Part shown: in pieces, positions 24,338-26,728 of the stretch
Position numbering within the stretch: position 1 is the stretch's first letter
Layout: every line of letters starts with the position of its first letter
IMG/VR virus record: IMGVR_UViG_2531839531_000009
Direction: 5' to 3' (one strand)
From: a virus
Taxonomy: Duplodnaviria; Heunggongvirae; Uroviricota; Caudoviricetes
DNA: 55,409 nt
Made by a program: the position numbers and the translations under genes
The notes under the pieces: generated by a model
Seen by the model: the letters and a program-made list of their open reading frames with translations, nothing else
Told to the model about the DNA's origin: nothing
The model's database searches: none

Positions 24338-24640
24338 GTGGTGATGGAAAAATATGAACTGAAAAAATACCGACTTAAAACACTGGAAGGCGAAACATTG
24401 CTTCAGCGTATAGCCCGAAATGTTGCCTGGTATGCCATACGACTCTCTCTGCATCGCCATCTTGTTAACGGGTATCCCTCGTCAACGCTGTTGTTCATCA
24501 ATATCAAAGATAAAGAAAAAGCCGCAGAACACATTCGGTGGATGGAACTGGCGCAGGGACAAGCTCTTGATATTGAGTATGGCGATGAGATCGACTACAG
24601 CAAAGCTCAACCGCTGCGCCACGTAATTTTTAGGGGGTGA
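24338..24640 (+). CDS. hypothetical protein
   Basis: 100-aa ORF; convergent with and abutting the minus-strand ORF 24641..24892. Confidence 0.4.
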   Translation: MVMEKYELKKYRLKTLEGETLLQRIARNVAWYAIRLSLHRHLVNGYPSSTLLFINIKDKEKAAEHIRWMELAQGQALDIEYGDEIDYSKAQPLRHVIFRG

Positions 24641-24892
24641 TTATGACATCTTTTCTTTTAGCTTTTGTAGGACAACGATCGGTTCATCAATTTGGGTTGC
24701 ATCCATTATCAACTCCAGTTTGTGATAAGCCCCGTAATTTAGCTCCTGTGTGTGGAATTCCTGGGCAAGTATTTTTACTCCTCCGCGATTGAGCATTCCT
24801 GAGGTGCTAAAAATTTTTGACTCGGTTCCAGTAATACTGTCCACCCAAAAATTTTGGGGGAATGGAGCAGACTTATCAAATGTAAAAGACAT
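24641..24892 (-). CDS. hypothetical protein (opposite orientation to surrounding operon)
   Basis: 83-aa ORF with AGGAGG SD 6 nt upstream of its ATG; AT-rich. Confidence 0.45.
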   Translation of the reverse strand: MSFTFDKSAPFPQNFWVDSITGTESKIFSTSGMLNRGGVKILAQEFHTQELNYGAYHKLELIMDATQIDEPIVVLQKLKEKMS

Positions 24893-24971
24893 GTCGAACC
24901 TCCTTTGGTTCTGTTGATTGGGGAATCACAGATTATATCCGGAGGAAGGTTCGACACCAGATGAGGCAATT

Positions 24972-26090
24972 ATGGTTAAGGCTAAAAATATGCCAAATCC
25001 CATGCCAAAAACTAAGGCAAACAATGAGCCTTATCGCAAGGTAAAAATAACGATATGGGATGATCCCAAATTTAGGGCGTTATCTCCTCTGCCTCCAAGT
25101 GGACAGAGTTTGTTTATTTATCTGCTGACCAGTCCATTTACCGGGATTATTCCTGGGTTGTTTAAAGCCGGGCGGGCAGCAATGGCTGAAGAGTTGGGGT
25201 GGGATATCGAAGCCTTTAACTTAGCCTTAGGAGAAGTCATGAATCTTGGCATGGTGAAAGCAGATATCAAAGCCAGAGTTTTTTGGCTCCCGAATGCTGC
25301 GAAACACAATCCGCCAAACTCGATAAATGTCATTAAATCCTGGGCAAAGGCATTCGCTTTAATTCCTGATTGCCCTCTCAAATGGGAGGCCAGAGAATCG
25401 CTGAGAGCCGCGTCCTACGGGGTTTCTGAGGCTTTGGGGATGGCATTCGATAAGGCAATCCCTTTGCCTGAGGATAAGCCTAAGGATAAGGCTAACGCTT
25501 TGTCATGCGGTATCCAGATAACAGATAACAGATATATAAACCCCACACATAACGCGCGCGAGAGTGCTCCGGCCAGTGAGGCAAATGGCGTGCCGTTGCA
25601 GACAGCGGAACCTGATTACCTGGAAGGCCTGAGCGAACCCATCGGGAAATTTCCGATGACCGATGGCTGGCATCCGTCGCCGGATTTTCGACGACGGGCG
25701 GCTCTGTGGGGAGTGGCTCTGCCGGAGCCGGAATTTACACCTGCTGAACTTGCCGCCTTCCGGGACTACTGGGCAGCGGAGGGGAAAGTTTTCACGCAGG
25801 TTCAGTGGGAGCAGAAATTCGCCCGTCACGTACATCACGTCAGGGCGCAGGTTAAACCAGTCAGCAAGGGGGTGAGCCATGCAGCAGCACCAGGCGGCAC
25901 CGCATCACGGGCAGTTCAGGAAATTCGGGCAGCACGTGAGCAGTGGGAACGTGAAAACGGATTTATCAGCGACGGAAACGGCGTGGAAGCTGTGGGAACT
26001 CATGGGGGAGGTTTATTCGAACCGCTGGACCCAGAAGAACGGGGCCGCACCTTCGAAGCCCTGGATTGCACAGATTGGTGCGATGACTGA
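24972..26090 (+). CDS. replication initiation protein (O-like/YdaU-like, DnaT-like C-terminal region)
   Basis: Start at internal ATG 24972; C-terminal segment TDGWHPSPDFRRRAALWGVALPEPEFTPAELAAFRDYWAAEG resembles DnaT-type domains; the 3' 212 nt overlap the next gene in another frame. Confidence 0.55.
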   Translation: MVKAKNMPNPMPKTKANNEPYRKVKITIWDDPKFRALSPLPPSGQSLFIYLLTSPFTGIIPGLFKAGRAAMAEELGWDIEAFNLALGEVMNLGMVKADIKARVFWLPNAAKHNPPNSINVIKSWAKAFALIPDCPLKWEARESLRAASYGVSEALGMAFDKAIPLPEDKPKDKANALSCGIQITDNRYINPTHNARESAPASEANGVPLQTAEPDYLEGLSEPIGKFPMTDGWHPSPDFRRRAALWGVALPEPEFTPAELAAFRDYWAAEGKVFTQVQWEQKFARHVHHVRAQVKPVSKGVSHAAAPGGTASRAVQEIRAAREQWERENGFISDGNGVEAVGTHGGGLFEPLDPEERGRTFEALDCTDWCDD

Positions 26091-26544
26091 GCAGCAAATC
26101 CGGCAGGTCTGCTGCCAGTGCATGGACCGCTGCCGGGCGGGTGAAACATGGCCTCCGGACCTGGCTGAGTTTGTGGCGCTGATTTCGGAAAGCGGAGCCA
26201 ATCCATTCGGTCTGACGGTGGATGCCGTGATGGAGGAGTACCGACGCTGGCGCAATGAGTCCTGGCGATACGACGGAAGCGATAAATACCCGTGGACTCA
26301 GCCTGTGCTGTATCACATTTGCCTCGAGATGCGTTCAAAGGGGATTGAGCGTCAGATGACCGAAGGGGAGTTAAAACGACTTGCAGAACGGCAACTGGCG
26401 AAATGGGCAAAGCATGTTGGTGATGGCTTCAGCGTTCCGCCCGTACGGCGGCAACTGGCAGCACCAGAACGCCCGTCGGGACCAACACCAATTGAGTTGC
26501 TGAAACAGGAATATGAACGCCGGAAAGCGGCGGGGTTTGTTTGA
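25879..26544 (+). CDS. replication protein P-like helicase loader
   Basis: AAGGGGG SD before ATG 25879; ...[11 protein letters not shown]...[19 protein letters not shown]...[20 protein letters not shown] parallels lambda P (...PSPGQFVAWC...YPWKSNAHYWLVTNLYQNM...TDAELRRKAADELVHM). Confidence 0.65.
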
Positions 26545-26578
26545 GTTGAGAAGTGATTTTTACCGGGAGGAAATTTTA

Positions 26579-26728
26579 ATGGAGACCGTTTTTGACGCAC
26601 TGAAAGCAATGGGAAAAGCCACGTCGGTAGAGCTGGCTGAGCGACTTGATATCAGTCGTGAAGAAGTACTGAACGAGCTGTGGGAACTGAAAAGGGCTGG
26701 CTTCGTTGATAAAAGCGTATACACCTGA
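26579..26728 (+). CDS. small winged-helix-like protein
   Basis: 49 aa from internal ATG with GGGAGG SD; [43 protein letters not shown]. Confidence 0.35.

Follow-up and report, generated by a model that had tools for sequence, protein, structure and literature searches.

A probable dual-coding overlap between replication initiator and helicase loader genes in a Rac-like lambdoid prophage

The window, by which we mean the whole 55,409-nucleotide (nt) stretch of DNA analyzed here (IMG/VR virus record IMGVR_UViG_2531839531_000009, Caudoviricetes), carries two replication genes one after the other on its plus strand: an initiator gene, read in what we call the O frame, and a gene for a lambda-P-like helicase loader (P), read in the +1 frame relative to O. 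The open reading frame (ORF) of the initiator extends past the first ATG of the loader gene, and an out-of-frame overlap of 212 nt between the two genes, described earlier from the letters of the DNA, is confirmed at 25879..26090 by both the ORF list and the sequence (Table 1). That sequence-only reading allowed for a real long overlap, a frameshift in the initiator gene, or a later loader start at ATG 26083. Comparison with related loci favors the first of these, and we consider it probable that the two replication genes genuinely share this segment as a conserved, same-strand dual-coding overlap. Found again in 35 diverged lineages and in all 66 of 66 close relatives, the arrangement is more than a product of chance; both the conservation of P and a predicted helix begin 5' of ATG 26083.

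Table 1. Features of the initiator and loader genes, in window coordinates (aa, amino acids; ssDNA, single-stranded DNA)
Feature	Position	Strand	Remark
O-frame ORF	24918..26090	+	Open to TGA 26088-26090
Initiator ("O-like") gene, DnaT-domain protein	24972..26090	+	372 aa if ATG 24972 is the start
DnaT-like ssDNA-binding domain of the initiator	25650..25850	+	Wholly 5' of the overlap
Shine-Dalgarno sequence of the P gene, AAGGGGGTGA	25866..25875	+	Within the initiator coding frame
Lambda-P-like helicase loader gene	25879..26544	+	Full length, 221 aa
Overlap, probably dual-coding	25879..26090	+	212 nt; P frame is +1 of O frame
O-frame conserved segment	25902..25958	+	Same bases encode the P leader, about aa 8-27, poorly conserved and predicted to be disordered
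Linker	25959..25983	+	Prone to variation and indels in either frame
Segment constrained in both frames	25984..26087	+	P domain-II helices and acidic O terminus
Alternative start ATG (Met42)	26002..26004	+	Judged to be an internal Met
Alternative start ATG (Met69)	26083..26085	+	Rejected as a start

The initiator contains a DnaT domain (PF17948; 64.4 bits, cutoff 25; aa 227–293 of the 372-aa version), and aa 223–292 match the C-terminal ssDNA-binding domain of DnaT (E = 2e-20 to PDB 6aep). PHROG 1408, a family annotated "replication initiation protein," aligns to aa 20–353 (E = 7e-90), and there is no match to PF04492 (Phage_rep_O) at E ≤ 0.01. By its domain content the window initiator is therefore assigned to the DnaT-domain initiator family (PF17948; PHROG 1408/3992) and not to the lambda O family; its earlier label, "O-like," is apt for its position and role but not for its family. 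The ssDNA-binding domain is shared with primosomal protein I (DnaT) of Escherichia coli. That protein, 179 aa long, serves the host in replication restart; it lacks the C-terminal tail described below, and its gene is not known to overlap a loader gene. Candidate starts of the initiator are TTG 24918 and the ATGs at 24972, 24990, and 24999, and annotations differ, with RefSeq using ATG 25182 (303 aa) and GenBank PP818812 using ATG 24972. Because PHROG 1408 aligns from aa 20 of the version starting at 24972, the RefSeq model is probably truncated, its start lying too far 3' and cutting the N-terminus by ~70 residues. Within 24600–26600, a search for iterons detected neither direct nor inverted repeats of ≥12 nt, although degenerate iterons would escape such a search.

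The loader matches PF06992 (Phage_lambda_P; 58.5 bits against a cutoff of 26), with aa 57–188 corresponding to profile positions 29–161, as well as PHROG 109 ("P-like helicase loader"), in which aa 19–220 correspond to positions 22–235 of 236 (E = 3.4e-61). With phmmer, aa 84–194 are collinear with residues 92–203 of lambda P (PDB 8v9t). As aligned, the 221-aa loader is collinear with the 233-aa lambda P, domain II included; the same would not hold for a 153-aa version, from which roughly half of domain II would be missing. We assign the protein to the lambda-P-type helicase loader family, and a function in DnaB loading is presumed from that family. It represents a distinct subfamily, with KNG and WPPDLAEF motifs and ~20–30% identity to lambda P where the two can be aligned; homologs of 215–223 aa exist down to ~50% identity. 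The two frames thus encode the expected families, with PF17948 upstream and PF06992 downstream, each above its cutoff. The strong ribosome-binding signal noted ahead of ATG 25879 holds up as well: AAGGGGGTGA, at 25866–25875, agrees at 9 of 10 positions with a TAAGGAGGTGA-type extended Shine-Dalgarno (SD) sequence, and its core lies 6 nt from the ATG.

Conservation and constraint across the overlap

Forty species-level loci were fetched, and 33 of these, all from Enterobacterales, show the arrangement; they represent Escherichia, Citrobacter, Enterobacter, Klebsiella, Salmonella, Pectobacterium, Serratia, Rahnella, Rouxiella, Erwinia, Yersinia, and Limnobaculum. Together with two Vibrio phages they make up the 35 lineages, among which the overlap is 149–227 nt long (median 212) and P is always in the +1 frame of O. 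In the 33 enterobacterial loci, the upstream ORF is 307–394 codons long and extends beyond the P ATG, which is located 126–159 nt 5' of an invariant KNG motif, and the stop of the upstream ORF is located 17–89 nt 3' of the same motif. In contrast, the four fetched loci with a lambda-type P (L040–L043) have only marginal overlaps; in these and in phage TL-2011b, the O and P genes share a few to ~30 nt.

The two Vibrio phages, D75 (L046, 852–2160) and D68 (L047, 798–2034), are arranged likewise; the overlap is 212 nt in D75 and 200 nt in D68, and the loaders are only ~31% identical. Matches to the N-terminal 132 aa of the loader occur in about 124 Vibrio phage records, whose proteins differ from the enterobacterial loaders in their C-terminal half. 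In the D75 record, the P-like gene is annotated from an internal start at 1834; its ORF begins at 1501, inside a gene labeled "replication initiation O-like."

An SD-like motif precedes the ATG at the position of 25879 in 35 of 35 lineages, and in most of the 33 enterobacterial loci it is of the GGAGGT type. Where the O frame encodes Gly-Gly at this place, most loci do so as GGA GGT, compared to a background of ~24% for each of the two codons among the other Gly codons of these genes. The P ATG likewise falls in an O-frame NAT codon followed by G, and it is invariant while the O residue may be His, Asn, Tyr, or Asp. Because they are kept at synonymous sites of the O frame while the O residue varies, the SD and ATG constitute a conserved, independent start signal. 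Among 66 distinct close relatives in IMG/VR, the ATG is intact in all 66, the O stop is found at +212 in all 66, and the 221-aa P ORF is present in 65. Diversity among these relatives, with all sites counted, is lower in the overlap (0.017) than in the flanks (0.081 and 0.054).

Constraint on each frame was assessed by codon position, as the mean pairwise nucleotide difference among 20 collinear loci. The bases encoding P aa 2–20 follow the O frame (0.39–0.41, 0.29–0.31, and 0.51–0.53 at O positions 1, 2, and 3; the O-only region gives 0.32, 0.32, and 0.53). Those encoding aa 21–35 are variable at all codon positions (0.39–0.57) and prone to indels, and those encoding aa 36–70 follow the P frame (0.24, 0.22, and 0.455 at P positions 1, 2, and 3; the P-only region gives 0.25, 0.20, and 0.57). 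Constraint is thus partitioned, with the 5' third of the overlap following the O frame, a middle linker free in both frames, and the 3' half following mainly the P frame.

Conservation of the O frame was also compared, in 16 deeply diverged sequences, to a null obtained by swapping each P codon for a random synonym. In the 3' half of the overlap it exceeds this null at z = 4–6 in every interval, and it falls to between −2.7 and +1.3 downstream of the O stop, while O-frame stops number 0–1 inside the overlap versus 6–22 in control segments outside it. At the codon level, Lys53 of P is encoded by AAG in 30 of the 33 loci, compared to a background of 34% (binomial p = 1.7e-11, with relatedness ignored), and the codon before it ends in G in 26 of the 33; both choices preserve a Glu-Glu in the O frame. 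The 3' segment (25984–26087) is constrained in both frames.

These observations bear on the possibility that the initiator of the window copy is frameshifted, or runs on past a true end located before 25879. Shorter initiators of the DnaT or YdaU type, with little sequence beyond the last domain, are indeed known from TL-2011b and from the Rac prophage of K-12. However, the short initiators are paired with other loader types, and every locus with this P subtype has an in-frame tail of ~70 aa. In all lineages this tail has the same length and sequence pattern, and its conservation in the O frame is greater than under the synonymous-shuffle null. When homologs of both proteins are aligned, the O tail is conserved past 25879 and P conservation begins 5' of 26083. 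With the O stop in the same place in every close relative, we find a frameshifted initiator scarcely credible.

Several results weigh against a dual-coding overlap of this length. P aa 1–28 show no clear constraint at the protein level, and their codon-position diversity follows the O frame. Conservation of the P frame in the 5' part, given the O protein, reaches z ~6, only modestly higher than the 3–4 of O-only controls. P-frame synonymous diversity in aa 36–70 is not significantly below that of the P-only region (0.537 versus 0.567, p = 0.2), with Gly43, Gln52, and Lys53 as exceptions at which it is reduced; as synonymous sites are saturated, this test says less about the deep lineages than do the shuffle null and the single-codon comparisons. 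Given the P protein, the per-locus probability of an open O frame is ~0.22, so that its openness is only weakly beyond chance, and the P frame, given the O protein, is expected to be open upstream (chance ~0.65). Because the openness simulations gave weak support either way, openness cannot carry the argument. The trough in diversity among close relatives extends from −63 to ~+296 of the ATG (25816–26175) and is wider than the overlap, which suggests either additional constraint in the flanks or a recombination block centered on the gene junction; recombination history may thus contribute to the trough. The SDs of the two Vibrio phage loci are weaker. Finally, Met42 of the loader is near-invariant (32 of 35 lineages), and it or Met69 is the start chosen by the NCBI pipeline.

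The start of the loader

Databases disagree as to where the loader begins. RefSeq (E. coli) and GenBank PP818812 and KU052037 place its start at 26083 (153 aa), while the LC5678xx records use a further in-frame ATG at 26122 (140 aa). In Salmonella, Citrobacter, and Klebsiella, PGAP calls a 180–181-aa "replication protein P" from the ATG equivalent to 26002. Loaders of 215–223 aa appear in older NCBI entries and among gene calls from metagenomes. The 140-, 153-, and 180–181-aa annotations are probably all truncated at the N-terminus.

In an alignment of 31 homologs, down to ~45% identity, conservation of P starts at about aa 36 with the motif AWxLWE.MxEIYSNRW..KNG..PS..W, within which M42, W50, K53, N54, G55, P58, and W62, all located 5' of Met69, are at least 90% conserved. 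AlphaFold2 with the family alignment gives a predicted local distance difference test (pLDDT) score below 50 for aa 1–27, followed by a helix at aa 29–46 with pLDDT above 80 and by further helices at aa 48–54 and 60–67. A predicted disordered aa 1–27 followed by helices from aa 29 would be consistent with the layout of lambda P, although without sequence similarity in the leader: in lambda P, a flexible N-terminal lasso (domain I, aa 1–29/40), reported as likely disordered in solution, precedes a compact domain II that begins at about aa 30–40 (PMC12661323).

If the loader began at ATG 26083, it would be coupled to the O stop through ATGACTGA, in which the ATG overlaps TGA 26088–26090, and the long overlap would be an illusion of ORF calling. 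Such an 8-nt start/stop overlap is a classic arrangement and is the one adopted by RefSeq, PP818812, and KU052037; as a general prior, most annotated prokaryotic overlaps of more than 60 bp are mispredictions (PMC2478687). However, Met69 is found in only 23 of the 35 lineages and absent from 12, and this start would delete the three predicted helices of the folded domain together with W50, K53, N54, G55, P58, and W62. The Pfam match begins at aa 57 (profile position 29) and the P-frame codon signature holds from aa 36 onward. Because the conservation of P, the AlphaFold helix, and both profiles (PHROG and Pfam) start 5' of ATG 26083, and of ATG 26002 as well, the annotated start at 26083 is untenable, and a short overlap of this kind is very unlikely. 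Expression or modeling of the loader as annotated would leave out part of domain II.

A start at ATG 26002 would instead give a 180-aa loader and an overlap of 89 nt, and the 41 upstream P codons would be untranslated by-products. In its favor are the presence of Met42 in nearly all lineages and the PGAP calls cited above, along with PHROG 33198, which begins at Met42; the O-frame signature of P aa 2–20 and the chance openness of the upstream P frame also fit this start. On the other hand, Met42 is replaced by CTG in L023, L025, and L046, where the upstream ATG is the sole consistent start. No well-spaced SD serves 26002, the GGGAGG-like strings lying ≤3 nt from the ATG and being forced by Trp-Glu codons, and this start would cut both the conserved AWxLW motif and the first predicted helix (aa 29–46). 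The upstream SD and ATG, moreover, are kept at synonymous sites, and PHROG 109 aligns from aa 19. We therefore consider a start at 26002 unlikely, and conclude from the combined sequence evidence that the loader is most likely translated from its own SD at 25866–25875 and from ATG 25879.

P genes without an upstream initiator occur in Erwinia, and these orphans start 10–26 aa before the AWxLW motif. Intact examples are L030 2492–3118 (Erwinia sp. CGal63) and L038 2474–3043 (Erwinia sp. MMLR14_017); one of the orphan loaders adjoins a gene similar to ttcA, the Rac integration locus in E. coli, and the other follows a transporter gene of the phosphotransferase system (PTS). Both could be relics of prophages, or loaders that have become domesticated.

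An initiator-loader fusion protein would result if ribosomes underwent a programmed +1 frameshift within the overlap. Databases do contain in-frame O-P fusions (P0113 and P0095), and both the O tail and P match PHROG 15931 (482 positions). However, P0095 (L049 3001–4158) is encoded on a "tig" contig from long reads whose gene calls are fragmented, which makes an indel error likely, and no conserved slippery or stall motif was seen by eye in alignments of the variable linker, for which no formal motif scan was run. Since the loader also has its own conserved SD and ATG, we regard programmed frameshifting as extremely improbable. The database fusions are probably indel errors, although there may be a natural fusion allele among them. 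The point of fusion lies within the linker, where neither frame is constrained. In Leclercia NCTC13032 (L036 2438–2689), the P frame slips into the frame of the O tail.

The initiator tail and its loader

All of the initiators with this arrangement end in the same tail of ~70 residues, which consists of an ES.A.QQ[IV] segment, a variable Gly-rich linker, and the pattern G.L.EPLD.EE[RW]G....LD..D..D. The bodies upstream of the tail differ; they contain DnaT, Phage_rep_O, HTH_36/DnaD_N, or DUF1376 domains or have no Pfam match, so that the tail is found on at least four unrelated architectures. One of these, L019, is a tail-bearing initiator with a PF04492 domain. The distribution of the tail was taken from the fetched loci and from Pfam; a search with the 71-aa tail alone against a database of 5.8 billion proteins gave six fragmentary E. 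coli matches and is uninformative in this respect.

Related initiators next to other loaders lack this tail. The Rac prophage of K-12 is of the same type as the window and has the same neighborhood (a dicA/racR-like repressor, ydaT, initiator, loader, and the DUF1627 gene ydaW). However, K-12-type YdaU has no such tail, and the gene after it, with no long overlap, encodes the DnaC-like ATPase YdaV, whereas the window has a P-type loader. The DnaT domain of the window initiator is also found in phage TL-2011b, but there it is accompanied by a different short tail, a lambda-type P, and an overlap of 29 nt; DNA similarity between the two stops at about 25846, ~20 nt before the P SD. On these comparisons, the tail is specific to this subtype of P loader and not to the type of initiator. 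As the exchangeable unit begins just 5' of the ribosome binding site (RBS) of the loader, it provides independent support for the RBS as the start of the cistron. Moreover, because the exchangeable tail goes with the P subtype across unrelated initiators, a frameshift in the window initiator is excluded.

We propose that the initiator is translated through to TGA 26090 and that the loader is initiated independently at ATG 25879 in the +1 frame. The first ~80 nt of the overlap are shaped by the initiator frame, with the first ~28 residues of the loader forming a poorly conserved leader, predicted to be disordered and possibly analogous to the domain I "lasso" of lambda P. A linker of ~25 nt is free in both frames, and the last ~105 nt are shaped mainly by the first folded helices of the loader, with further constraint on the acidic terminus of the initiator.

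The lambda O-P pair is similar to that of the window in gene order, in the roles of the two proteins, and in loader family (PF06992, PHROG 109), although lambda O has its own domain where the window initiator has a DnaT domain. The C-terminal part of lambda O contacts P and recruits the P-DnaB complex, which matches the role suggested here for the window tail; by analogy with lambda, the shared tail may be a loader-specific docking element. More tentatively, the overlap as a whole is possibly a portable adaptor, in which the 5' end of the loader gene would encode, in the −1 frame, a C-terminus of ~70 aa for any initiator recombined in phase 5' of the loader RBS, and this C-terminus, through its conserved segment and its acidic EPLD.EE[RW]G...D end, would dock the loader or DnaB. 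Located inside the loader cistron, the tail would be inherited with the loader as one module when initiator bodies are exchanged. If the adaptor model is correct, at least four unrelated origin-binding proteins would each have become compatible with the loader by one recombination event, and the interacting surfaces (the initiator tail and the N-terminal region of the loader) would share the same DNA and be inseparable. Specificity between initiator and loader would then survive mosaic shuffling from Enterobacterales to Vibrio phages. A tail that docks the loader would also be a short, transferable peptide with which to probe the recruitment of P-type loaders to origins, and in that case the overlap would explain how matched initiator-loader pairs are kept through modular phage evolution.

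The overlap may also affect expression. Ribosomes translating the initiator would cross the start site of the loader, probably tempering loader synthesis; expression of its lambda homolog, P, is toxic, likely through sequestration of DnaB (PMC4926192). Folding of the RNA of 25810–25950 revealed no significant structure masking the P RBS (z = −0.8), and we therefore claim no structure-mediated coupling.

Same-strand overlaps in which a downstream start lies inside the upstream gene occur in different phases in lambda Rz/Rz1, phiX174, and MS2. Compared to these, the window overlap is terminal instead of embedded, it joins two replication proteins that are presumed to interact, and its shared segment behaves as part of a mobile module found on unrelated upstream genes. 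In a literature search, which was not exhaustive, neither this overlap nor the shared tail was found to have been described. Long functional overlaps are already known from phages. The module is widespread and mis-annotated but not new in kind. It stands as a well-supported exception to the view of long prokaryotic overlaps as mispredictions, and the clean partition of constraint between its frames makes it a good test case for methods that detect dual coding.

Prophage neighborhood and related records

The genes surrounding the overlap occur in the order dicA-like repressor, dicC, ydaT, initiator, loader, and a ydaW-like gene encoding DUF1627, a neighborhood typical of a Rac-like E. coli prophage of the lambdoid kind. 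The region has 99.7% identity to that of a human stool isolate, and most of it is present in ~1,250 of 5,426 complete E. coli genomes. The record PP818812.1, deposited as "Actinobacillus phage vB_Apl-pPE4" of A. pleuropneumoniae, is 97% identical over 1.7 kb to this E. coli Rac-like prophage and has the dicA/ydaT/initiator/P/ydaW order in common with the window; its attribution to an Actinobacillus host looks doubtful. Between ydaT and the initiator, a minus-strand ORF of 83 aa occupies 24641–24892, and PP818812 has a longer minus-strand hypothetical protein annotated over this place.

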